64,000 nucleotides of DNA from Candidatus Aminicenantes bacterium (GTDB lineage Bacteria; Acidobacteriota; Aminicenantia; Aminicenantales; Saccharicenantaceae), in the NCBI GenBank assembly GCA_963805045.1, contig CAWDTC010000025.1:42372-106371 (forward strand), read 5' to 3'. A program made the translations under genes and the position numbers. The first letter of the stretch is position 1, and the number at the start of each line of letters is the position of its first letter. Positions 15,222 to 61,879 of the stretch are shown here, one piece after another. Under the pieces are notes generated by a model. It searched no databases. It was given only the letters and a program-made list of their open reading frames with translations, and was not told the DNA's origin.

Positions 15222-16913
15222 TCACCGCGCCGCTTCGCTGTCTTCCCAATCGCGGATCGTCCGTATGGCCTCCTCCGGGGTCCGGACCGACCTCAGGACC
15301 TGCATGAGTTGCCTGTTCTGGGCGGCCCGGCTGGCCAGGCCCAGCAGCTGGACCTGGGTCCCGGGGGTCTCGGCCGGGGACAGGAGGAGAAAGACGATCT
15401 CGATGGGCTTGTCCGTGGCCACGTCGATGACGCCCTCCTTCGTCAGCCCGAGGACGACGACCGGTTCCTTCAGTCCCTCCACCCGGACGTGGGGGAAGGC
15501 GACGCCCTCGTTGAAGAACGTCGAGCCCTGCGCCTCCCGCGCCATGATGGCCGCGAACAGGGCTTCGGCGTCCCCGCCGCCGGCCTCCGGTCCGACGGTC
15601 GCGGCCAGGGCGCACAGCACGCCTTCCCTCTCTGCGGCCGTCTCCCAGATGACGACCCGTGGGGAGGACAGCCACCGGCTGAGCCGGGGACGGTCCGCCG
15701 GCGCGGCGCCGGCGCCTCCGGCCGCAGCGACCCCCGCCGTTTCCTGCTCGGGGATCTCGGGCCGGGGCCGGACGGACTCCGGCAGGTCCTCGCACGTGTC
15801 GAGGACGATGACGGTGATCCCCCGGGCGTTCCTGATGAGAGCGTCGATGACGTTCCTGTTCCGGCCGAGCCGCTTCCAGAACGGCTTGGGCTGGGCCCGG
15901 CCGACGACGATGTGGCCGACCCGGTATTCCCGGGCGAAACGGAGGAGCGTGTCGGCGATGTCCTCCCCCTTGTAGGTGAAGACCATCGCCCCGAGCTGCT
16001 TGGCCAGGGTCAGGGAGTCCGAGAGATGGCGCTGGACTTCGGCGTCGATGACCGTGGCTTCCTCCGACGGCGTCTGGACATAGACGGCGTACCAGTTCCG
16101 GTTGAGCCTCCCCGCCAGCCGCGAGCCGTAGCGCAGGAGCTTCTCGCTGTTCGGGCCGTGCGAGCTCAGGCAGACCATGACCTGGTCGGACGAAGCGCCG
16201 GCCTCCGCCCCCTGCGCCTCCCGCCGCCGCAGGTCGATCTGCGAGGCCAGCTCCCGCAGGGTCAGCTCGCGGAGCTTCTCCAGGTTGGAGGGGGTGAAGA
16301 AATTGGCCAGGGCGGTCTCGATGCGTTCGGTCGGGTAGATCTTGCCGTCCTCCAGGCGCTGCCGCAGGTCCTCCGTGGCCAGGTCGACGTCGACGATCTC
16401 GTCGGCCTCGGCCAGGATCGAGTCGGGGATGCGCTCGCGGACCTTGACCCCGACGGCGTTCTCGACGATGTTGTAGAGGCTCTCGAGATGCTGGACGTTG
16501 AGCGTGGTGATGACGTGGATGCCGGCCGCCAGGATGTCCTGGACGTCCTCGTAGCGCTTGGCGTTCCGGCTGCCGGGGACGTTCGTGTGGGCCAGCTCGT
16601 CGATGAGGGCGACCTGGGGCTTGCGGGCCAGGATGGCGTCCACGTCCATCTCCTCGACGGCGATGCCGTGGTATTCCTGGGTGCGCCGCGGCACGACCTC
16701 GAGGCCCTGGGCGAGCCGGGCGATGTCCGCCCGGCCGTGCGTCTCGAGGAGGCCGATGACGACGTCGATGCCCTCGGCCTTGAGCCGGTGGCCCTCCTGG
16801 AGCATCTGGTAGGTCTTGCCGACGCCCGCGGAATAGCCGAGGTAGACCTTGAGCCGGCCCCGCTGGGCGCTGCGGATCATGCGGAGGAAGGCGTCGGCCT
16901 TATCGTCCGGCAC
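15222..16913 (-). CDS. Kinase-less KdpD sensor module: KdpD N-terminal domain + Usp domain fused to a PTS EIIA(Ntr)-like (EIIA type 2) domain
   Basis: KdpD-N signature LKVYLGYSAGVGKTYQML...ALIDELAHTN. A Usp-OKCHK-like region follows (VMVCLSSHGPNSEKLL...IVVG), then a Gly/Ala linker and an EIIA-2 fold with an active-site-like His (GVAFPHVR...IVFLLLSP). No HisKA/HATPase is present. Confidence 0.8.
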   Translation of the reverse strand: MPDDKADAFLRMIRSAQRGRLKVYLGYSAGVGKTYQMLQEGHRLKAEGIDVVIGLLETHGRADIARLAQGLEVVPRRTQEYHGIAVEEMDVDAILARKPQVALIDELAHTNVPGSRNAKRYEDVQDILAAGIHVITTLNVQHLESLYNIVENAVGVKVRERIPDSILAEADEIVDVDLATEDLRQRLEDGKIYPTERIETALANFFTPSNLEKLRELTLRELASQIDLRRREAQGAEAGASSDQVMVCLSSHGPNSEKLLRYGSRLAGRLNRNWYAVYVQTPSEEATVIDAEVQRHLSDSLTLAKQLGAMVFTYKGEDIADTLLRFAREYRVGHIVVGRAQPKPFWKRLGRNRNVIDALIRNARGITVIVLDTCEDLPESVRPRPEIPEQETAGVAAAGGAGAAPADRPRLSRWLSSPRVVIWETAAEREGVLCALAATVGPEAGGGDAEALFAAIMAREAQGSTFFNEGVAFPHVRVEGLKEPVVVLGLTKEGVIDVATDKPIEIVFLLLSPAETPGTQVQLLGLASRAAQNRQLMQVLRSVRTPEEAIRTIRDWEDSEAAR

Positions 16914-17493
16914 GGGGGACTCCGTCGAGCGCGAGGTTCAATTCAGGACGTTGACGCGGGGCTCGCCGAGGATGCCCAACGTCCGGCCCTCGGTCGTGGC
17001 CGCGACGAAGGCGAGGACATCCGACTCGGTCAGGCCGCGGGCCCGGGCGACGCGGCCGGCCTGGAGCCGGGCGTTCTCGGGGGAGATGTGGGGGTCGAGC
17101 CCGCTCCCCGAGGCGGTCACGGCGTCGGCCGGCACGGGCGTCCCCGGCGCGAGGCCGTTCTCCGCCCGGTATTCGGCGACCCGGCGCCGCACGGTCTCGA
17201 TCAGCTCCTTCGACAGCGGCCCGAGGTTTGACCCGCCGGAGGCCGTGGCGTCGTAGCCCTTCCCGGCCGCCGACGGACGCGGATGGAAATACCCCGGCCC
17301 GGCGAACCGCTGGCCGATGAGGTCCGAGCCGACGACGGCGCCGCTCCTCGCGACGAGCGAGCCGTTGGCCTCTGGCCGGGAAGAAGGCCTGAGCCAGGAC
17401 CCACGAGGCCAGCGGATAGAGGCCGCACAGAAGGACGGCCAGGGCGGCCACGGCCAGGAAGGACCGCCGGAGTTCCTCGAGCCAGCTCTTCAT
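16900..17493 (-). CDS. kdpC: K+-transporting ATPase subunit C (frameshifted)
   Basis: N-terminus [32 protein letters not shown] (ATG at 17493); C-terminus ...[13 protein letters not shown]...EPRVNVL/ELNLALD is split between ORFs 16938-17192 and 16900-17493. Confidence 0.75.
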
Positions 17494-17514
17494 CTCCGCG
17501 TTCCTTTCCCCATG

Positions 17515-19541
<2,027 letters not shown>

Positions 19542-19553
19542 CGTGCGACTCCC

Positions 19554-21408
19554 TTAGAACAGGACTCCCGAACCGGTCATCAGGAAGTGCTCGACGATCG
19601 GGCCGAGGGCCAGGGCGGGAAGGAACGTCAGGGCGCCGACGATGAGGACGGTCCCGACGAGGATGATGACGAACATCGGCCCGCTCACCGGGAAGCTCGC
19701 CTCGCCCGCCGGGACGAGCTTCTTCCGCGCCAGGCTCCCGGCCAGGGCCAGGACCGGCACGATCATGACGAAACGGCCGAAGAGCATGGCCAGGGCCAGG
19801 GTGACGTTGTACCAGGCGTGTTGCCGTTCAGCCCGGCGAAGGCGCTGCCGTTGTTGCCCGTGGCCGAGGAGAAGGCGTAGAGGATCTCGCTCAGGCCGTG
19901 GGGGCCGGCGTTGCCGAGGCCGGCCAGGCCCCAGCGGCTCGACCGACGGCCCAGGCGGCGAAGCCGAGGATGGAGAAGATGAGGATGAGGACGGCCAGGA
20001 CGGAGACCTTGACGTCGTAGGCCTCGATCTTCTTGCCGAGGTACTCGGGCGTCCGCCCGACCATCAGGCCGGTCAGGAAGACGGCCAGGACGACGAAGAC
20101 GAGCATCCCGTAGAGGCCCGAGCCGACGCCGCCGAAGACGACCTCGCCGAGCTGGATGTTGACGAGCGGGACGAGCCCGCCGAGCGGCGTGAACGAGTCG
20201 TGCATGGCGTTGACCGCGCCGCAGGAGGCGTCCGTCGTGACGGTGGCGAAGAGGGCGGAGTCGAAGACGCCGAAGCGGACCTCCTTGCCCTCCATGTTGC
20301 CGCCGCGCGGGTCGACGCCGAGGGCCTGCGAGCCGGGGATTGCCGGCGCTCTCGGCCCTCCAGCAGACGAGGACCGCGGCCAGGAAGAGGATGGCCATGG
20401 CCGTCCAGACGGCCCAGCCGTGCTTCTGGTTCTTGACCTTGCGGCCGAGGTAATAGGTGAGGCCGCTCGGGATGAGGAAGATCGAGAGCATCTGGATGAA
20501 GTTCGAGAGCGGCGTCGGGTTCTCGTAGGGATGGGCGGCGTTGGCGTTGAAGAAGCCGCCGCCGTTCGTGCCGAGCATCTTGATGGCCACCTGCGAGGCC
20601 GCCGGGCCCTGGGGGAGGGTCTGGGTCGTCCGGCCGCGTCCTTCCCGGGACCGGCCGTCGCCTCCGCGGTCGCCGCCCGGACGTAAGGCTTGAAGTTCTG
20701 GATGACGCCCTGGGACGATCAGGAAGAGCGGAGAAGACGAGCGAGAGCGGGAGCAGGAGGTAGAGGTTGACGCGGACGAGGTCGACCCAGAAGTTCCCGA
20801 TGGTCTTGGCCGAATGCCGGGCGATGCCCGCGGACCAGGGCCGCGGCGACGGCGATGCCGGCGGCGGCCGAGACGAAGTTGTGGAAGACGAGCCCGACCA
20901 TCTGCGAGAAATAGGACAGGGTCGATTCCCCGGCATAGTTCTGCCAGTTCGTGTTCGTGGTGAAGCTCGCCGCCGTGTTGAAGGCGAGGTCGGGGCGCGA
21001 CGCGGCCCGAACTCTGGGGGTTCAGGGGCAGGAGGTGCTGGAGGCGGAGGACGGCGTAGGTGAAGAGGAGCCCGACCAGGCTGAAGACGAGGAGGGAGAG
21101 GGTGTATTGCTGCCAGTCCTGCTCCTTCTTCCGGGTCGACGCCGAGGAGCCGGTAGAGGAGGCGCTCGACGGGCTTGAGCCGGCCGGTCCAGCCAGGTCC
21201 TGCCCTCGGGCTCGAGGACGCGGACGAGGTAGAGGCCGACCGGCTTCGTGAGGAGGAAGAGGACGCCGAGGAAGAGCGCGAGCTGGAGTCCAGCCGGAAG
21301 ATGTCCATCGCGATCATCGCCTCTCAAAACTTCTCCGGCCGGAGGACGCTCGAGCAAGAGATAGCCGATGAGCAGGAGCCCGACGATGAGCCCGATGATG
21401 TCGATCAT
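19554..21408 (-). CDS. kdpA: K+-transporting ATPase subunit A (several frame breaks)
   Basis: N-terminus [19 protein letters not shown] (ATG at 21408). Internal segments are in ORFs 20073-21317, 19891-20295 and 19763-20590; C-terminus in 19554-19787. Confidence 0.85.
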
Positions 21409-21410
21409 GG

Positions 21411-21495
21411 TCAGAGCCTCTCGCAGGCCCGGGCATACAGGGCGCAGAGCCCGAAGAAGACGCACGGCGATGAGCACGAAGAAGACGTCGCTCAT
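21411..21495 (-). CDS. kdpF: KdpF-like small membrane peptide (about 28 aa, one frame break)
   Basis: [12 protein letters not shown] then ATG at 21495. Peptide MSDVFFVLIAV...FFGLCALYARACERL read with a 1-nt shift. Its TGA lies immediately before the kdpA ATG. Its ATG overlaps the upstream HK stop (ATGA). Confidence 0.5.
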
Positions 21496-23349
21496 GACGC
21501 GGCTCCTCCTCGGCGCACCGCGTCGGCCCTCCTCAGCGTGAAGGAGAACGTCGCGCCCTGTCCCTCCCGGCTCTCGACGCCGACCGTTGCCGCCGTGGGC
21601 CTCGACGATCTCCTTGACGATGGCCAGCCCGAGCCCCGCGCCCCGGTCTCCGGCTCCTGCCCGGGAACGCGGAAGAACGGCTCGAAGATCCTGGCGAGGT
21701 ACTTCGCGGGGATGCCGGCGCCCGTATCGGCGACCGAGAAGCGGACCGACGTCCTCCTCTTCCTTGGCGCGACACGGTGATCCGCCCGCCGGGCGGCGTG
21801 TGCTTGAGGGCGTTCGAGAGCAGGTTGCCGAAGACGTGGCTGATCGGGTCGGTCGGCCAGGACCTCGGGCAGGTCTGCCGCGCACGTCGACGGCCAGCGT
21901 CACGCCCTGGTCCTGGGCCGCCCGGCGGAAGGGCTCGAGGGCGTCCATGACCAGCGTCTGCGGGCGAGATCGGCCTGGAAGTCCATGCTGGCCTTCCCCG
22001 ATTCCATGCGGCTGATGTCGAGGAGGTTGTTGAGGATGTCGTGGAGCCGGTCGCTGTCCTCCCGGGCCGCGACCAGGAGCTCGGCCTGCTTCTCGGTCAG
22101 GGCGCCGACCTTCTCCTCGAGAAGGAGGTGGATGGCCATGCGGATGGAGGTCAGGGGGGTCTTCAGCTGGTGGGAAACGGTCCGGATGACACTCCGCTTG
22201 ATCTCGTCCTGCTGCCGGAGCTGGGTGACGTCCTGGAGGACGAGGATGACGCCGGTCGGCTGCCGCTCGGCGTCCAGGATGGGGACGGCCTCCGGGCGGA
22301 AGAAGCGCTCCTCCCCGTCCACGAATGCTGGATGACCTTCTGCCGTTCGCGGGGCGGAACGGGCCGGCCCTCGCTGAGGGCCTCGTTGTAGAGATCGACG
22401 TCCAGTCCGAACGGCAGGTCGCGGATGGCGGACGCCCGGCCTCAGGCCGAAGACGGTCCTGGCCGGCTCCGTCGACGACCTCCACCTTTCCCTCGAGGTC
22501 GACGACGGCGACGGCGTCGGGCAGCTGTCGAAGGCCTGCTGTGTCGCCCGCTGGATGCGGAGGAGCTTGGCCTGGTCGGTCCGCCGGAACTCCCGCAGGC
22601 TGGCGGCCATGGCGTTGAACGCCTCGGCCAGGTGGCCGATCTCGTCGTGGGAATCGCTCGGGACGACGAGGTCGAGGTTGCCGCGCCGGATCTCGTCGGC
22701 GGACCGGATCAGGCGTTCGGATCGGGCCGGAGGATCCAGCGTCCGGGCGAAGACGATGAAGCGAGCGGCGACGAGCGTCCCCAGGCCGAGAAGGACGATA
22801 CATCTGCCGCCGGGCCGCGGCGGCGCTCTGCGCGGGCCCGGTCGTTGGCGTCGCTCATGTTCTGCTGGTTCATCTGGAGGATGTCGTCGGCCGTGGCCTT
22901 GATCTGCCCGAAGAGCGGGAGAAGGGCATGTGAAGTAGGCGTCCCGGCGGACGTCCGGCGGCCTGCGCCGGGTCGCTTGACCTTCTCCAGGGCCGCTGCG
23001 TACCGGCCGTAAAGATCCTTGAGCGCGCGGCCTTCTCGCCCTCGCCCGGCACGGTGATGTTGTTCAGCTCGACCTGGAGGGCCTTTTCGAAGACGCCTTC
23101 GTTCTTCAGGATGAGCTCCTCCCCCTGACGGGAGTCGCCGAGGAGGGTAAAGAGCAGGCCGCTGTCGATGCGCTCCAGGGCCTCCTTCATCTGCTGGCAG
23201 GCGATGACGCTCCGGTAGTTCTCGCGGAGGATGACGTCGATGGACTCGCCGAGCCGCGAGAGGTGGAGGATGCTCTGGCCGCCGATGACGAGGATGATGA
23301 CGAGCAGCCCGCCGAAGCCCAGGGAGATCTTCTGACGGAGTCCGAGCAT
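21492..23349 (-). CDS. Membrane sensor histidine kinase (non-KdpD type; periplasmic sensor domain, HisKA, HATPase), frameshifted
   Basis: RBS GGAAGGAGAGG then ATG at 23349: MLGLRQKISLGFGGLLVIILVIGG... (ORF 22870-23349). HisKA VSHQLKTPLTSIRMAIHLL (ORF 21900-22610). HATPase ...GLGLAIVKEIVEAHGG in a third frame; stop at 21492. Confidence 0.75.
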
Positions 23350-23373
23350 TGCCTCTCCTTCCGGCCTTCATAA

Positions 23374-23389
23374 TGCAAGAGCCATGCCA
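23374..23389 (-). promoter_or_regulatory. Sigma-54 (-24/-12) promoter CTGGCATGGCTCTTGCAT immediately upstream of the HK-kdpFABC operon
   Basis: Minus strand reads TGGCAT-N5-TTGCA. The GG-to-GC spacing is exactly as in the consensus TGGCAC-N5-TTGCA. The predicted start site falls at the RBS, about 14 nt before the ATG. Confidence 0.55.
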
Positions 23390-23481
23390 GAGTTGCGTGT
23401 CTTCATAAACTATTGAAAATGAATGTGTTGCATTTCGCCTGGCAAAGCGCGGCTTGCATTCGTCAAGGTGGACGGCGAATT

Positions 23482-23503
23482 GGCCATTGAAAAATGCAAT
23501 GCG
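23482..23503. promoter_or_regulatory. Candidate enhancer/UAS inverted repeat GGCCATTGAAAAATGCAATGCG, about 105 nt upstream of the sigma-54 -24 element
   Basis: Arms GCATTG/CAATGC. A near-identical motif (17/22) occurs at the same distance from a second sigma-54-like promoter at 27521-27542. Further TTGCAT repeats lie at 23427 and 23454. Confidence 0.4.
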
Positions 23504-23544
23504 ACCTGGAGGATCTTCGATCGGAGGCGACAGAGGCGCTTCAG

Positions 23545-24914
23545 CTAAAGGCCGTACTTCTTACGCCGCCGCCAGAGGGTGGCCTGGTCGATGCCGAGCA
23601 CGTCCGCCGCCTCCTGGAGGGAGTCGCGTCCTCGCCAGGACGCGCCGGATGTGCTGCTCCTCGATCTTGTCCAGGCTCACGCGGTCGCCGAGCCGGACCT
23701 CGGCGCCGCCGGGAACGACTCCCGCCGGCAGGCATTCGATGCCGACGCGGTCGTCGCGGCAGAGGATGGCGGCGCGCTCGACAGCGTTGCTCAGTTCGCG
23801 GACATTGCCCGGCCAGGCGTAGCCGGCCAGGGCGCGAAGGGCCTCGTCCGTGAAGCCCAGGTACGAGCGGTGGTTATTGCGGGCGTGAAAGGCCAGCAGC
23901 CGTTCCGCGAGCCCGGCAATGTCGCCCGGCCGCTCGCGGAGGGGAGGGATCTCGATCGGGATGACGTTCAGACGGTAATAAAGGTCCTCCCGGAAGCGGC
24001 CGTGCTTGACGGCGTCCTCGAGGCTCGTGTTCGTGGCCGCGATCAGCCGCACGTCCGCCTTCCGCGTGACCGTGTCGCCGACGCGCTCGTATTCCCGGTC
24101 CTGGACGAAGCGCAGGAGCTTCGGCTGGAGGGCGAGGGGCAGGTCGCCGATCTCGTCCAGGAAGAGCGTCCCGCCGTCGCTCGCGGCGATCCGGCCGGGG
24201 TTGTCGCGGACGGCGCCGGTGAAGGCGCCCTTGACGTGGCCGAAGAGCTCGCTTTCGAGCAGCTCCGGCGAGAAAGAGGGGCAGGAGATCAGGCTGAACG
24301 GCTTCCCCGCCCGGGGGCTCCAGGAATGGATGGCCCGCGCCAGGACCGTTTTGCCCGTGCCGCTCTCGCCGCGAAGGAGGAGCGTCGCCTCGGATGCCGC
24401 GGCCTGGCGGGCCAGGGCCGCCGCCCTCTGCATGGCCGGGTTCGAACTCGAAAAATCGACCTCCGGACGCTGGCGGCCCAGGTCCTCCTGTAGGGCGGCG
24501 ACCTTCTGCTCGAGCGTCCGGACCTCGAAGACCTTCCGGACGGCCAGGTTGATCTGGGCCGGCGTGAACGGCTTGGGGATGTAATCGGTCGCTCCCCGCC
24601 GCATGGCCTCGACGGCCGTATCGATGGAGGCGTAGGCGGTGATGACGATGATCTTGAGCCAGGGCGTCGCCGCGAGGAGGGGCGGGATGAGGTCGAGGCC
24701 GTCGTCGGTGCCCAGCCGGAGGTCGACGAAGGCCAGGTCGAAGGAACGGCGTGCGGCCTCGGCCAGGGCGTCCTGGAAATTGCTGACCGCCGATGACCTT
24801 GTGGCCTTCCGTCTCGAGACAGAGGGCCAGCGTCTTGCGGATGTTGAGCTCGTCGTCCACGACCAGGACATGGAGGGACGGGCTCACGGCCGGGATGCTC
24901 TTTTCGGGCCCCAT
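23545..24914 (-). CDS. Sigma-54-dependent (NtrC-family) response regulator: REC - AAA+ sigma54-activation domain (GAFTGA) - Fis-type HTH; frame breaks near both ends
   Basis: N-terminus MGPEKSIPAVSPSLHVLVVDDE (ATG at 24914). AAA+ with GESGTGKT and GAFTGA. C-terminal HTH ...EAADVLGIDQATLWRRRKKYGL* read in a shifted frame (stop at 23545). Confidence 0.8.
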
Positions 24915-24937
24915 GGGACGATCCGCTTCGGGCCCCA

Positions 24938-24966
24938 AGCATAGCGGACATCCGGGGGAAAAGCAA
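24938..24966 (-). promoter_or_regulatory. Candidate sigma70 promoter TTGCTT-17-TATGCT for the response-regulator gene
   Basis: Minus strand: TTGCTT (24966-24961), 17-nt spacer, TATGCT (24943-24938), about 25 nt upstream of the ATG at 24914. Confidence 0.35.
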
Positions 24967-25105
24967 CACGCAGCCAAGCGATGGACGGGGCATGTCCTCC
25001 CACGGCAGACAGGGCCTTCCTCGGGCTGGAAGGTTCCCATTTGCCGTGTTTCGGACTACAATAAGGGTGTCAAAGTCAGGACATGGGTAATCCCCCGGAG
25101 GCGTC

Positions 25106-25879
25106 ATGACACTCAAGAAGAAACTGACTTTGGGCCTGGGGTTCTTGTTCCTCATCATATTCTTTTTGGGGATTTTCTGCTCCTACCATATCGGCAGCCT
25201 CTCGCAGGACGCCGAGAACATCCTGAAAGACAATTACAAATCACTCGTCTACTCCAGGAACATGATCTCGGCCCTCGAGGACATGCGGACGGCCGTCAGC
25301 AGCATTATTTTCAACGTGCCCGAAGCTAAGGAGACATCAGACTACTACCTGAAGCTCTTTGAAGCCGGCCGGATCGAATTCGAAGCCAATCTCAAGTCCG
25401 AGAACGGCAACATCACCGAGATCCATGAAAGCGATTACGTGGCCGCGGTCAACCGGGATTATGTTCTGTACGCAAGCCTCTGCCAGCGCCTCGTCAAGGG
25501 GGAGGGCGGCCGCGCGCTCTATTTCAATGAATACCAACCCGCCTTTGAAAAACTCAGGCACGCCATCATCAGCATCAACGACGTTAACATGCAGGCCGTC
25601 GAGCGGAAAAATCAGATCGCAAAGCAGGATTCGGCCAGGACCATCAGCCTTATGGCCGGCATCGGGGCCTTTTGCCTGCTCCTGGCGTTCGGCTATTTTT
25701 GGTACTTCCCGGTTTACATCTCCAACTCGATCAGCTATCTTGCGGACAGGATGAAGACGCTCCTGAAGAAGTCCAACATCGTCCTCGATATCAGGACGGA
25801 CGACGAAGCCTTCATCGTCTTGCAGGGCATCAACCTGCTTGAGAACAAGCTGGACGTCAAAGACAATGGACAGGCCTAG
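25106..25879 (+). CDS. Orphan membrane-anchored sensor-domain protein (two TM segments, no output domain); paralog of the HK sensor domain
   Basis: MTLKKKLTLGLGFLFLIIFFLGIF...ENILKDNYKSLVYSRNMISALEDM aligns with the HK N-terminus ...DVILRENYRSVIACQQMKEALERI. A second TM is near the C-terminus. RBS GGAGG. The gene is visibly lower in GC than its flanks. Confidence 0.6.
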   Translation: MTLKKKLTLGLGFLFLIIFFLGIFCSYHIGSLSQDAENILKDNYKSLVYSRNMISALEDMRTAVSSIIFNVPEAKETSDYYLKLFEAGRIEFEANLKSENGNITEIHESDYVAAVNRDYVLYASLCQRLVKGEGGRALYFNEYQPAFEKLRHAIISINDVNMQAVERKNQIAKQDSARTISLMAGIGAFCLLLAFGYFWYFPVYISNSISYLADRMKTLLKKSNIVLDIRTDDEAFIVLQGINLLENKLDVKDNGQA

Positions 25880-25896
25880 AGGCCTGCGGATGGATT

Positions 25897-27201
25897 CTAA
25901 AAGGTGAAGAGGGCGTCCACGCTGAATGTCAACTGATCTTGATGGCCGCCGTCGAAGGCCGCGCGGTCAGAGTGGTCGTAGCGAACTTCAGGCCGGAACA
26001 GCACATGCGAGAGGATATGGTCTTTTGGGAACGGCTTGATCGCCATGCCCATGGTTGCCTCACGGTAGTCGGCGCTGACGGGCGCACCGGTGGAAAAGCC
26101 ATTGGCGGCGTCTTTGTACCACTCCAGCCGGGTGTTCAGTGTGAAGTGCGTATCGATCGCGAAGCTTACGTAGCCAGCCACGCCACCCCACTGCTTAACA
26201 CCGTCCGGTAAGCCCGGGATGTGCGGCGCGACGACGTAGTCAACGCCCAAGCCGAGGCTGAATTTGTCAGTGACCTTGTGGGTCATAACCAAGTCCAAGG
26301 CGGTCCACCAGTCGCTGTTGTCGCCCGGAGGCAGATTCGTTCCGACGCCCGCCGGGAACTCCGGGCCTTCCGTCATCACGAAAATGACGGAAGTCTTGTC
26401 GCTGGGCGTATAGATCACGCGGCCCAAGAAGTCCAGGGAATCGTTAGCGTCGCGCGTCGACTGGTTCCAGCCGCGCGTGAAGCCGGCGTCAAACGTCCAC
26501 TGGCGGTTAAGCACGACGGTGGCTAATACGCCCGTCTGCGTGCCAGACTCGGCATAGAGAAACTGATAACTGTAAGAATAAAGTGCCCTGGCCGGATCAC
26601 CGAAAGCCCCGTAGATGTTAGCGCTGAACTGCTCGAAACCGGCCAGCTCGATCCATTTGCCCACGCGGAGTCGAAGCGGCAAGCCCGGGAGGGTCACGTC
26701 CACATAAGCTTGGAGAAGGTCCCATTGATTGCGCCCGGTCTGCGTATCCATCATGCCGTTCGAGTGGATGAACGCCGCATCTGCGCCATAGATGCCTTCC
26801 CCGTGGAAACCCACGTTAAATGCCTTCTTGGTCGGATCGACCGTGCGCTCGATATTCAAACTGATCTTGTCAAGGATGACCGTGTTCTTGAAATTGTTAT
26901 ATCCGATGTAGGTCGGGCCGGGACTGTCAGGCGCGGAGAGGTCGTAAAAGTAACCGCCTTGAGCATAGCCGTAGATGTTGATCCTGGCCTTGTTCAAAGG
27001 CCCAGCTATTCCCCCCTCGGCCAAAGCCGTCATCAGCGGCCCCGGTGTCGGCACGGTCGTGGTCGGCGGACTTGCTTCCTGGATCTTTTCCTTGTCCGAT
27101 GTCGCTGCCGGTGCATTTTGGCCGGCGCGCAATGGGATATTGATCCAAGCGGCAAGGAGCGCACAGCTGACTGCGGCAATCCCGAATTTAACGACTTTCA
27201 T
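25897..27201 (-). CDS. Outer-membrane beta-barrel protein (porin-like), with a signal peptide
   Basis: RBS AAGGTGA then ATG at 27201: MKVVKFGIAAVSCALLAAWINIPLRAG. Alternating amphipathic strands; C-terminal ...SVDALFTF (terminal Phe). Confidence 0.6.
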   Translation of the reverse strand: MKVVKFGIAAVSCALLAAWINIPLRAGQNAPAATSDKEKIQEASPPTTTVPTPGPLMTALAEGGIAGPLNKARINIYGYAQGGYFYDLSAPDSPGPTYIGYNNFKNTVILDKISLNIERTVDPTKKAFNVGFHGEGIYGADAAFIHSNGMMDTQTGRNQWDLLQAYVDVTLPGLPLRLRVGKWIELAGFEQFSANIYGAFGDPARALYSYSYQFLYAESGTQTGVLATVVLNRQWTFDAGFTRGWNQSTRDANDSLDFLGRVIYTPSDKTSVIFVMTEGPEFPAGVGTNLPPGDNSDWWTALDLVMTHKVTDKFSLGLGVDYVVAPHIPGLPDGVKQWGGVAGYVSFAIDTHFTLNTRLEWYKDAANGFSTGAPVSADYREATMGMAIKPFPKDHILSHVLFRPEVRYDHSDRAAFDGGHQDQLTFSVDALFTF

Positions 27202-27413
27202 GGGTGTCACCTTGGTTAAAGGATGTGCGATCTCTTCCGGATTCGGTTGCGACGGTCGAGCGACTATCATCAATCCGCTGCACGATTTGCGAGAACTGAC
27301 GGTCGAGGATATGCACGACTGTATTTCCTATGGGACGGCTGGCTTTCTGGATGTTTGTTTTTGATTTCATGGATTTAAGGGGGCTTGGCGTTTTTTTCCG
27401 AGAGACCGGATAG

Positions 27414-27431
27414 TGCAAGATATATACCAAC
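27414..27431 (-). promoter_or_regulatory. Sigma-54-like promoter GTTGGTATATATCTTGCA (TGGTAT-N5-TTGCA) about 210 nt upstream of the OMP gene
   Basis: Exact GG-N10-GC spacing; a TGGTAT -24 variant is known from nif promoters; shares an upstream motif with the kdp sigma-54 promoter. Confidence 0.35.
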
Positions 27432-27520
27432 AGATCTTTACTGTATCTGATTAAAAATAAATGAGTTTTTCGAAGTTCGAGTTCCGGGCCTGGTTGCACT
27501 AATCAATTAAGGTCGCGAAT

Positions 27521-27542
27521 GGGCATTGAGAAATGCAACGGC
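27521..27542. promoter_or_regulatory. Second copy of the candidate UAS motif GGGCATTGAGAAATGCAACGGC, about 104 nt upstream of the -24 element
   Basis: 17/22 identity with 23482-23503, and the same distance to its promoter. Confidence 0.35.
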
Positions 27543-27594
27543 GGCGGCCTTCATCGCCGCCACGAGCTTACTTATTAAGCTTGTTTCGTTCGAA

Positions 27595-28392
27595 TTAGAC
27601 CGTAAGCTCGCCGCGGAGGAAGGTCACGGCCCGGCCGGCGATGCGGACCCGGTCGTCGTCGAGGCGGACGCGAAGGACGCCGCCTCGCGCCGAGGCCTGG
27701 AAGGCGGTCATCGAGGCCTTGCCCAGGCGCCGCGCCCAGTACGGCGTGAGGACGCAGTGCGACGAGCCCGTCACCGGGTCCTCGTCGACGCCGACGGCCG
27801 GGGCGAAGAAGCGCGAGATGAAATCGAATCGTGGGTCGCCCGACCGGCTGGTGACGATGACGCCGCGCGCCGGGAGGGTCCTGAGCGTCGCGATGTCGGG
27901 ATCGAGCGTTCGGACGGCCGCCTCGTCGGCGACCTCGACCAGGGCGTCCTCGGCGCTCAGGCCGATGAACGAGGGCTTGACGCCCAGGGCGCCGACGAGG
28001 GCGTCGGCCCAGTCCGGCACCCCCGGTTGGACGGGACGCGCCGGGAAGTTGAGCTCGATCCATTCGCCGTCGCGGCGGGCCGTGAGCAGTCCGCTCAGCG
28101 TCTGGAAGCGCGCCTCCCGGCCGGCGGCCAGGATCCCCTCTTCCCAGAGGATGTGGGCCGTGGCCAGGGTCGCGTGGCCGCACAGCTTGACCTCGACCTT
28201 GGGCGTGAACCAGCGCAGCCGGAAGCCGTCCCCCTCGGCCAGGGGGAAGGCCGTCTCGGCCAGGTTCATCTCGGCGGCGACGTCCTGCATCCAGGGGGCC
28301 TCGGCCGGGCCCTTGAGCAGGCAGACCCCGGCCGGGTTGCCCTTGAACGGCTCCGCCGCGAACGCGTCGACCTGGAAAATCGGGATGCCCAT
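27595..28392 (-). CDS. PhzF-family phenazine-biosynthesis-like isomerase
   Basis: MGIPIFQVDAFAAEPFKGNPAGVCLL...; RBS GGAGGA lies 5 nt before the internal ATG at 28392, so that start is preferred over the ATG at 28407. Confidence 0.8.
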   Translation of the reverse strand: MGIPIFQVDAFAAEPFKGNPAGVCLLKGPAEAPWMQDVAAEMNLAETAFPLAEGDGFRLRWFTPKVEVKLCGHATLATAHILWEEGILAAGREARFQTLSGLLTARRDGEWIELNFPARPVQPGVPDWADALVGALGVKPSFIGLSAEDALVEVADEAAVRTLDPDIATLRTLPARGVIVTSRSGDPRFDFISRFFAPAVGVDEDPVTGSSHCVLTPYWARRLGKASMTAFQASARGGVLRVRLDDDRVRIAGRAVTFLRGELTV

Positions 28393-59555: not shown

Positions 59556-60679
59556 ATGATGGAAAACGTCTTACCCCGAAAACCTCCGTCCGTGGCCCCA
59601 CCCAGTTCCTCGGCCTTCCGTCGCCCGGCTTGGAAAACGCCGACGCGCTCCTGCTGCCGCTGCCGGTCGAGAAAACCGTGTGCTATGGCCGCGGCACGGC
59701 CGGCGGGCCGCGGGCGATCATCGCGGCCAGCCCCCAGATCGAGACCTTCGACGAAGAGACGCTGGTGGAGTTCGCCCAGTCGCCGCGACTCCATACCCTG
59801 CCGCCGCTGCCGGCCGAGGGCGAGATCGAGGACTGCCTGGCGGCGATCGAGGATTACGTCCGGTCGTTGCCGGAGAAGTTCCTGCTGGCCCTCGGCGGGG
59901 AGCATACCGTGACCTACGGCGTGGTCGCCGGGCTGGTCGCGCCCACAAAGCCGCGACCGGCGGTCGCGCCCAGCTGGCAGCAACTGCCGCGCCAACCGGT
60001 TCAACTGCCACCCCAACGCGACGATCTGGCCGGCGTGACGGTGGTGCAGATCGACGCCCACGCCGATCTGGCGGACCGGTTGCACGGCCGGCGTTGGTCG
60101 CACGGCACGGTGATGCGGCGGCTCTGGGAGCGGGGCTGCCGGCTCCTTCAGATCGGCGTCCGCAGCCTCAGCCGGGAGGAATATCGAACTGGCCTCCGCC
60201 GGGCCGCGGATCACCACCTACTACGCCCATCGCCTGGAGGAGCAGTGGGCCGAAATCCTGGAGACGCTCCGCGGCCTGGAAGGGAAAGTCTACCTGACGC
60301 ATCGACGTGGACGGTCTGGATCCGTCGATCATTCCCAGCACGGGCACGCCGCTGCCCGGCGGGCTCGGCGTGGCGGCAGATGATGGAGATCATCCGCGTG
60401 CTCTGCACGGAGTCCCGCGGCCGGCTGATCGGGGCCGACATTGTCGAGTTCGTCCCCTCGCCGGTCCCGCCCGGCTGCGATCCGACGGTCGCCCGGCTGG
60501 CGACGAAGCTGCTGGCGTGGTGGTGGAAGGGGCACGGTGCCGTCGCCGGCCGCTCTCTGTCGCAGGGAGAGTGGCTTACGCTGGTACGAAGATTGCGCTT
60601 CGGACAGCCTCTTCGAGCGTTGGGCGGCGTTGACCGCATCCGAGGACGGCCTTGCACGGGGAAGATTAGCCGATACTGA
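59556..60679 (+). CDS. Agmatinase/arginase-family ureohydrolase (several frame breaks)
   Basis: ALGGEHTVTYGVV, VVQIDAHADL and IDVDGLDPSIIPSTGTPLPGGL motifs spread across ORFs 59630-60679 and 59680-60297; the 3' end is uncertain. Confidence 0.7.
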
Positions 60680-61362: not shown

Positions 61363-61879
61363 GCCGCCGAGCACGCCCGATAGCGGCCAGAGGGGAGACG
61401 CAGGATTGTCGCTACGGGCATAGAGATGTCCAAGCCGCGCGGGGGCAGGAGAGGAGGCGGTTTTGTCGGTACGGCGAATCGTGTTGTTGGTTTGCTTGCT
61501 GGTTGCAGCGGATATCGGTCTGCTCGTGCCGGTCTGCCTACTGGCTCGGGTGGAGGCTCCCGCTGGCAGAGGCGTTGCTCTCGGCAGTGGCCGGCCGTGC
61601 TGGTGATCGGCTACTATGAGTGGCGATGGTCAACCCTGGTCGCACGACTATCTCACAGCGGAGGTGCCGGGGGTGCACGGCGAATCGTTGTGTCGAGAAG
61701 ATCCTGCCTGCTAGTCGCCGGCGCATCTCCTGATTTTGCCGGGTTTTTTGAGCACCGCGGTTGGTCTTGTCCTGCTACTGCCGTGGGTCCGCCGCCTGAT
61801 CGCGAAGCCAGCGGCACAACCGGGTGTGAAAGGAAAAGACGGGGGGGCCGAAACGGGCGACCCGGCCGCGTGACGGCTT

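Follow-up and report, generated by a model that had tools for sequence, protein, structure and literature searches.

A sigma-54-type promoter with paired upstream palindromes ahead of a kinase–kdpFABC operon in a Candidatus Aminicenantes bacterium

The window, i.e., the whole stretch of 64,000 nucleotides from a Candidatus Aminicenantes bacterium that we analyzed (contig CAWDTC010000025.1; position 1 is its first letter), carries on its minus strand a cluster with the gene order regulator, promoter, kinase, kdpF, kdpA, kdpB, kdpC and KdpD-like sensor. The regulator gene (23545..24914) codes for an NtrC-family response regulator with REC, AAA+ and HTH_8 domains, in which the AAA+ module (PF00158, Sigma54_activat, 1.2e-64, plus AAA lid) bears a GAFTGA motif encoded at 24229..24212. 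This gene is interrupted by one +1 insertion near 24790 and another near 23631, and in the assembly the C-terminal Fis-type HTH, which ends in SLQEAADVLGIDQATLWRRRKKYGL directly before the stop codon, is in a different frame from the AAA+ domain. When reconstructed, the protein has very many relatives of 455 aa with 80–87% identity, several of which are annotated as Candidatus Aminicenantes. It falls far below the cutoffs of AtoC, NtrC, LuxO, ZraR and the other named NCBIfam regulator families (for ntrC, for instance, the score is 357 bits and the cutoff 559). In the JGI database its relatives carry the name 'AlgB', which is a database label alone and not to be relied on.

The first gene downstream of the promoter codes for a sensor histidine kinase (21495..23349, the end being approximate). 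In this assembly it lies in at least five pieces, and its domains were read from an intact 614-aa ortholog in locus L001, which displays a 4HB-like sensor region followed by HAMP, PAS, HisKA and HATPase domains. It is followed by kdpF (21325..21408, end approximate), kdpA (19557..21317, limits approximate), kdpB (17515..19541) and kdpC (16900..17493). The last gene (15222..16913) is intact and specifies a 563-aa fusion of the KdpD N-terminal domain (PF02702, 1.6e-92), a Usp region and a PtsN-like PTS EIIA-2 domain (PF00359, 3.9e-16, along with PtsN-like matches); it scores 367 bits with the KdpD_non_kinase model, below the cutoff of 550. This KdpD-like/EIIA fusion recurs in about 30 related loci and is absent from those of the Desulfobaccales/Syntrophobacteraceae type; our literature search for such a fusion found no report of it. 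On the other side of the regulator, and on the same strand, lies a gene for a BBP2/OmpL-like β-barrel porin (25897..27201; PF07642, 3e-48).

The entire stretch from 16900 to 24914 is broken by about 17 single-base frame changes in about 8 kb—two in the regulator, at least five each in the kinase and kdpA, four in kdpB and one in kdpC. The KdpD-like gene (1.7 kb) and the porin gene (1.3 kb) on either side contain no such breaks. This uneven distribution could be read as a sign that the promoter region described below, though real in the lineage, is here a non-functional relic in front of a decaying regulator–kinase–kdpABC pseudogene cluster; if the frameshifts were real, the regulator–kinase–kdp circuit would be dead in this organism. 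Several observations speak against such decay. First, the two breaks in the regulator that were examined in detail are both single-base insertions relative to its relatives. Second, the frame pieces remain highly identical to their relatives (up to 90–95% in kdpA and kdpB, with some kinase pieces at 36–55%), and a search for stop codons within the reconstructed pieces of the regulator saw none. Third, pairs of overlapping ORFs on the same strand in other parts of the window hint that the cluster is not the only region with such breaks. Fourth, P0121 (on L115), a regulator of the same 90%-identity cluster, is intact; its contig comes from short reads and has kept the spacer. Finally, the promoter and enhancer motifs are all intact. 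The insertions, the identity, the lack of stops, the ORF pairs and P0121 together make assembly errors in the form of long-read indels the most likely source of the frameshifts, and we regard a decayed cluster as improbable, though the least improbable of the alternatives considered here.

The regulator and kinase genes are separated by a spacer of 195 bp, from the TAG at 23547..23545 to the ATG at 23349, with a GC content of 51% in a context of 67–69%. The kinase start is preceded by a −24/−12 element, TGGCATGGCTCTTGCA (23374..23389, minus strand), with its GG at 23388–23387 and its GC at 23376–23375; the minus strand at 23390..23373 reads cTGGCATGGCTCTTGCAt. It matches 10 of the 11 positions of TGGCAC-N5-TTGCA with the exact GG-N10-GC spacing. 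An earlier note, made from the letters of this stretch, had proposed a sigma-54 promoter here on the strength of that consensus and spacing, and our scan bears this out: the pattern TGGCAYNNNNNTTGCW (TGGCAY-N5-TTGCW) has a single exact match across both strands of the 64 kb window, where 0.02 would be expected and only 2 of 100 shuffles yield one. The distance to the kinase start, previously given as 25 nt, comes to 24 nt between the end of TTGCA at 23374 and the ATG. Between the two lies an AAGGAG within a purine-rich Shine–Dalgarno block (AAGGAGAGG, 23352..23360, minus strand) that is kept in the alignment of Aminicenantes sequences. The usual spacing from a −12 GC to +1 predicts a transcription start at about 23363 (23361..23365, minus strand), which would put some 14 nt of leader ahead of the ATG.

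To place these elements in a wider context, we drew on a genome scan for related clusters that recovered 80 loci from Aminicenantes, Thermodesulfobacteriota (including the cultured Syntrophorhabdus aromaticivorans UI), Desulfobacterales, Chlorobiaceae, Phycisphaerales, Gemmatimonadales, Opitutaceae, Zixibacteria and Thermoanaerobaculia. Their commonest gene order is regulator, kinase, kdpA/B and KdpD-like sensor, with differing orders in L015, L030, L059 and L077. A −24/−12 element that agrees with the consensus at 8 or more of 11 positions stands within 70 nt upstream of the kinase start in 48 of the 64 orthologous loci, compared to 0.9% of shuffles, and the loci compared come from at least eight phyla. 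The position of the element is likewise constrained: in 37 of 44 loci it ends 22–30 nt before the start codon. The −24/−12 element is real, and it is in all likelihood a sigma-54 promoter whose activity in vivo would be expected to depend on sigma-54. A search of the ORFs of the 64 kb window for the RpoN-box peptide found none; rpoN is not encoded in the window and the presence of sigma-54 in the host is hence assumed.

Anchoring the sequences from the related loci on the −24/−12 element revealed two 13-bp palindromes of the type TTGCA-N3-TGCAA further upstream, with the consensus cCTTGCAtttTGCAAgg derived from 44 loci. In the window these are the distal site TTGCATTTTTCAA (23487..23499, minus strand) and the proximal site TTGACGAATGCAA (23454..23466, minus strand), which lie 33 bp apart. 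Their centers are 104 and 71 nt upstream of the T of TGGCA, which corresponds to about −130 and about −97 when counted from the predicted start, and each has one imperfect half (TTCAA and TTGAC). The arrangement is strongly conserved: the two palindromes are 31–33 bp apart in 39 of 50 loci, and the center of the proximal one falls into discrete classes of −58 to −62, −69 to −71 and −81/−82 relative to TGGCA, with one helical turn between classes. From Aminicenantes to Chlorobiaceae and Phycisphaerales the enhancer/promoter layout is kept, and across phyla the upstream dyads retain their sequence, number, spacing and helical phase. Being three helical turns apart, the two sites would present themselves on the same face of the DNA. 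A variation on the theme is seen in L053, L055 and L078 of the Phycisphaerales/Tepidisphaerales, which have a palindrome with a spacer of 4 rather than 3 nt (TTGCA-N4-TGCAA) along with a divergent HTH in the regulator.

The paired geometry has a familiar counterpart. NtrC, an activator with the REC–AAA+–HTH architecture that works in its phosphorylated form, acts at glnAp2 from two dyads about 32 bp apart, roughly 100–140 bp upstream of the −24/−12 element. The two-site layout in the window resembles this arrangement, but the recognition sequence (TGCACC-N5-GGTGCA for NtrC), the signal and the regulon differ.

The distal palindrome forms the core of the inverted repeat to which the earlier note had drawn attention. 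The position it gave for that repeat is correct: its center is found 104 nt before TGGCA and some 44 nt past the regulator TAG. The regulator stop and the kinase from which the note measured belong to the broken reading frames described above, which it did not mention. The sequence, quoted as GCATTGaaaaatgCAATGC, was off by one base; the plus strand reads GCCATTGAAAAATGCAATGC and hence the perfect arms are 5 bp long (CATTG-N7-CAATG, 23501..23485) rather than 6 bp. The literal GCATTG...CAATGC repeat is absent from the sequence. The extra TTGCAT half-sites claimed between the repeat and the promoter are present on the plus strand, at 23454 and 23428, but only the former belongs to a conserved element, namely the second palindrome. 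The TGCAA at 23432..23428 is not kept in L115, L050, L060 or L009, and accordingly it is not counted as an enhancer site. The enhancer is therefore best described as a pair of 13-bp TTGCA-N3-TGCAA palindromes, as read from the aligned loci, and not as a single GCATTG/CAATGC repeat with scattered half-sites.

Taken individually, the repeat motifs in this spacer are unremarkable. The inverted repeat on its own is within chance expectation (TTGCANNNTGCAA with up to one mismatch has 1 match against 0.33 expected, and with up to two mismatches 9 against 7.5), single palindromes with one or two mismatches are no rarer than chance, and the spacer is AT-rich relative to its surroundings. These facts might suggest that the promoter/enhancer match is a fortuitous one, which we consider next to impossible. 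Positional conservation across phyla excludes it. Moreover, the window contains two instances of the composite in which a sigma-54-like element is accompanied, at the appropriate offset, by two palindromes spaced 31–33 bp, against a mean of 0.005 in block-shuffled windows, and none of 200 such windows has two or more.

A repeat lying about 44 nt past a stop codon, with a possible 5-bp stem, might alternatively be a transcription terminator or an RNA hairpin. We consider this very unlikely, for a scan of the spacer on either strand found no terminator-like site, and the fold is no better than that of shuffled versions (z = +1.41, with 188 of 200 shuffles folding equally well or better). Furthermore, what is conserved are DNA half-sites in two phased copies, and in L050 and L060 the first site lies within about 10 nt of the regulator stop, leaving little room for a separate terminator. 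At gathering scores no Rfam family was found in the window, and relaxing the threshold to E-values up to 1 over 23300..27700, which includes the porin leader of about 200 nt, brought up nothing relevant. A scan of the spacer for a sigma-70-like promoter also found none.

Between the enhancer and the promoter, at about −49, is an AT-rich IHF-like site, TTTCAATAGTTTA (23406..23418, minus strand), with one mismatch to WATCAANNNNTTR. Perfect matches to WATCAANNNNTTR are present in 9 of 50 loci compared to 0.5% of shuffles, and matches with up to one mismatch in 23 of 50 compared to 8.6%; they cluster 19–25 nt upstream of TGGCA. At IHF-assisted sigma-54 promoters such as nifH, the DNA is bent between enhancer and promoter, and IHF may bind and play a comparable role in the spacer described here.

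The palindromes had been proposed to serve as an enhancer for the adjacent NtrC-family activator, and this proposal is supported by the domains of that activator, by the conserved dyads, and by DAP-chip data from Desulfovibrio vulgaris (see below). Across the loci, regulators with DQATLWRR in the HTH go with TTGCA or TTGAA half-sites, those with DSVTLWRK with TTTCA, and those with DQATLWHK with TTGTN, while the Phycisphaerales HTH goes with the N4 spacer. This pattern is confounded with phylogeny, so that it does not amount to independent evidence; it is consistent with the adjacent regulator as the putative binder. A competing possibility is that another sigma-54 activator with matching specificity occupies the palindromes, for example a stress regulator like DVU3305 or a protein akin to LuxO, with the adjacent regulator acting elsewhere. 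In D. vulgaris a DVU3305 site (of the GTTGCNNNNNGCAAC class) indeed overlaps the DVU3334 site at kdp, and TTGCA-N3-TGCAA is recognized by LuxO. We nevertheless judge this rather unlikely, somewhat more so than a decayed cluster: the sites accompany the regulator gene across 50 loci, including those with divergent and regulator-last orders, the half-site variants track the HTH of the adjacent regulator, and that regulator obtains just 332 bits with the LuxO equivalog model, whose cutoff is 800.

The sequence relationship to LuxO sites is nonetheless close. The LuxO motif upstream of the sigma-54 promoters of the Vibrio qrr genes is TTGCA-N3-TGCAA (PMC3352281, PMC10328515). The motif at the kdp loci is identical to this consensus, and the Vibrio cholerae qrr3 site ttgcattttgcaa equals the sites of L042 and L046. 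The systems differ in other respects: LuxO controls small RNA targets in quorum sensing and receives its phosphate from LuxU, whereas the regulator described here belongs to a kdp cluster and is not a LuxO equivalog.

The second composite in the window lies about 4 kb away from the first, upstream of the porin gene. It consists of the palindromes TTGCATTTCTCAA (27538..27526) and TTGATTAGTGCAA (27506..27494), 32 bp apart within 27494..27538 on the minus strand, and a second sigma-54-type element, TGGTATATATCTTGCA (27414..27429, minus strand), for which the proximal site sits at −71 just as in the kdp promoter. Both promoter and enhancer are kept in the porin orthologs of L071, L083, L084, L085 and L105; in L099 the composite is found directly after the regulator stop codon, and the start of the porin gene there is uncertain. 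Judging from these shared elements, the porin gene is probably a second target of the same regulator. In other lineages porin orthologs occur inside the kdp clusters themselves, suggesting that the porin belongs to the K+ uptake regulon and forms its outer-membrane part. Its leader in the window (27202..27413, minus strand) measures about 200 nt as against 23–76 nt in close relatives, with roughly 140 nt apparently extra.

Taken together, we hold it highly probable that the spacer constitutes a complete enhancer-dependent sigma-54 promoter for the kinase–kdpFABC–kdpD(N)/EIIA operon. In the mechanism that we propose, sigma-54 RNA polymerase would be held as a closed complex at TGGCAT-N5-TTGCA, with dimers of the adjacent NtrC-type regulator occupying the two palindromes. 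The membrane kinase, presumably at limiting K+ and with input from the soluble KdpD-like/EIIA sensor, would phosphorylate the regulator and thereby lead to assembly of its ATPase ring. A bend at the IHF-like site would carry the ring to the polymerase, where the GAFTGA loop may remodel sigma-54 and cause the promoter to open, with transcription starting near 23363. The same regulator probably drives the porin gene through the identical enhancer–promoter layout there. As the kinase and the soluble sensor are part of the activated unit, the circuit would feature positive feedback, with the regulator gene itself standing outside the unit. Further, with no terminator between the regulator and the kinase, read-through may supply a basal level of the kinase.

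The closest precedent for this organization is the DVU3334/DVU3335/DVU3336 kdp system of D. vulgaris Hildenborough. Its sigma-54-dependent regulator, DVU3334, gave a DAP-chip peak upstream of its own kdpFABC operon, a split KdpD being noted there (Rajeev 2011, PMC3333781), and it is listed under potassium uptake by Kazakov et al. 2015 (PMC4641369). The former study predicted the motif CGTTACATTTTGTAACG for D. vulgaris and CGTTTCATTTTGAAATGT for S. fumaroxidans, where it precedes a kinase gene adjacent to that of the regulator; it terms the kdp sites 'putative' (PMC3333781). The DVU3334 motif does not figure among the EMSA substrates covered, nor is there a 3334 entry in the part of Table S6 covered; its four appearances in the supplement all fall within Tables S7 and S9 (PMC3333781). 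The S. fumaroxidans motif is identical to sites of L054, L061, L072 and L074, and both motif and arrangement are those of the Syntrophobacteraceae loci. The D. vulgaris system and the one in the window are thus linked indirectly, by way of gene context and these Syntrophobacteraceae loci.

The two systems have in common a GAFTGA-bearing NtrC-type regulator, a KdpD-N/Usp protein with a PAS kinase, and a kdpFABC regulon under sigma-54 control, which is predicted in the case of the window. They also share the 13-bp dyad (GTTACAtttTGTAAC, or TTTCAttttGAAA in S. fumaroxidans) of the form TTnCA-N3-TGnAA, 100–250 bp upstream of the first gene. However, there are clear differences. In D. vulgaris the order is kdpFABC–sensor–kinase–regulator with the promoter before kdpF; in the window the unit begins with the kinase, and the regulator gene precedes it without belonging to it. 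The half-site is TTGCA in place of the TTACA of D. vulgaris, and there are two phased sites with an IHF-like site compared to the one site reported for that organism. Finally, the sensor has an extra EIIA domain, and there is a second target in the form of the porin.

The Escherichia coli KdpD/KdpE system has the same kdpFABC output and the same KdpD N-terminal/Usp module, and its link between EIIA-Ntr and KdpD appears here as a domain fusion. In contrast to the locus in the window, with its NtrC-type regulator and no sigma-70-like promoter in the spacer, it uses the OmpR-type KdpE, a sigma-70 promoter, a single-polypeptide KdpD and a separate PtsN. A 2025 survey of sigma-54 regulons (PMC12316311) makes no mention of kdp, potassium or porins.

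The regulatory type itself is already described in Desulfovibrio, and nothing known is overturned by our observations. What is new is the range of phyla in which it occurs, the paired and phased sites along with an IHF-like site, the gene order that starts with the regulator, the porin target and the EIIA fusion. Our observations extend a design known from one Desulfovibrio study to the Aminicenantes, which are uncultured, and to seven or more further phyla, and define it as a phased pair of TTGCA-N3-TGCAA sites, a bend site of the IHF-like kind, a −24/−12 element and a short leader. This combination offers a usable annotation signature for sigma-54-dependent kdp operons and targets for EMSA and reporter assays. 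The porin and the KdpD–EIIA fusion also bear on the coupling of K+ homeostasis to cell physiology. On a more speculative note, and with the odds in our estimate leaning somewhat against it, Kdp control outside the Proteobacteria might mostly take the form of a sigma-54 'three-component' circuit of a 4HB–HAMP–PAS kinase, an NtrC/LuxO-like activator and a soluble KdpD-like non-kinase sensor, inclusive of the EIIA hard-wiring and the porin regulon. If this were true, the fusion of the sensor to an EIIA-Ntr-like domain would build the phosphorylation state of PTS-Ntr directly into K+ sensing, and the inclusion of a dedicated BBP2 porin in the Aminicenantes regulon would point to regulated passage of K+ across the outer membrane.

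Some further features of the window and of the related loci are worth recording. Two other sigma-54-like elements with one mismatch, TGGCGCGGCAGTTGCT (59979..59994, minus strand) and TGGCAGAGGCGTTGCT (61564..61579, plus strand), are present in the window, neither with a kdp-type enhancer. Divergent from the regulator gene, a 257-aa ORF (25106..25879, plus strand) in a stretch with a GC content of about 0.59–0.62 codes for a stand-alone 4HB_MCP-like membrane sensor that is about 25% identical to the N-terminal 230 residues of the kinase. A homolog of this sensor lies between the regulator and the kinase in L019, which is one of nine loci (with L010, L022, L029, L047, L052, L070, L073 and L080) that have an extra gene at this position. 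In the Chlorobiaceae the extra gene codes for a transporter of the amino-acid-permease family of about 676 aa, and in several 'delta' MAGs for a protein of some 200 aa that has a hydrophobic segment at its N-terminus. The composite promoter stands in front of the extra gene in L022, L070 and L080.
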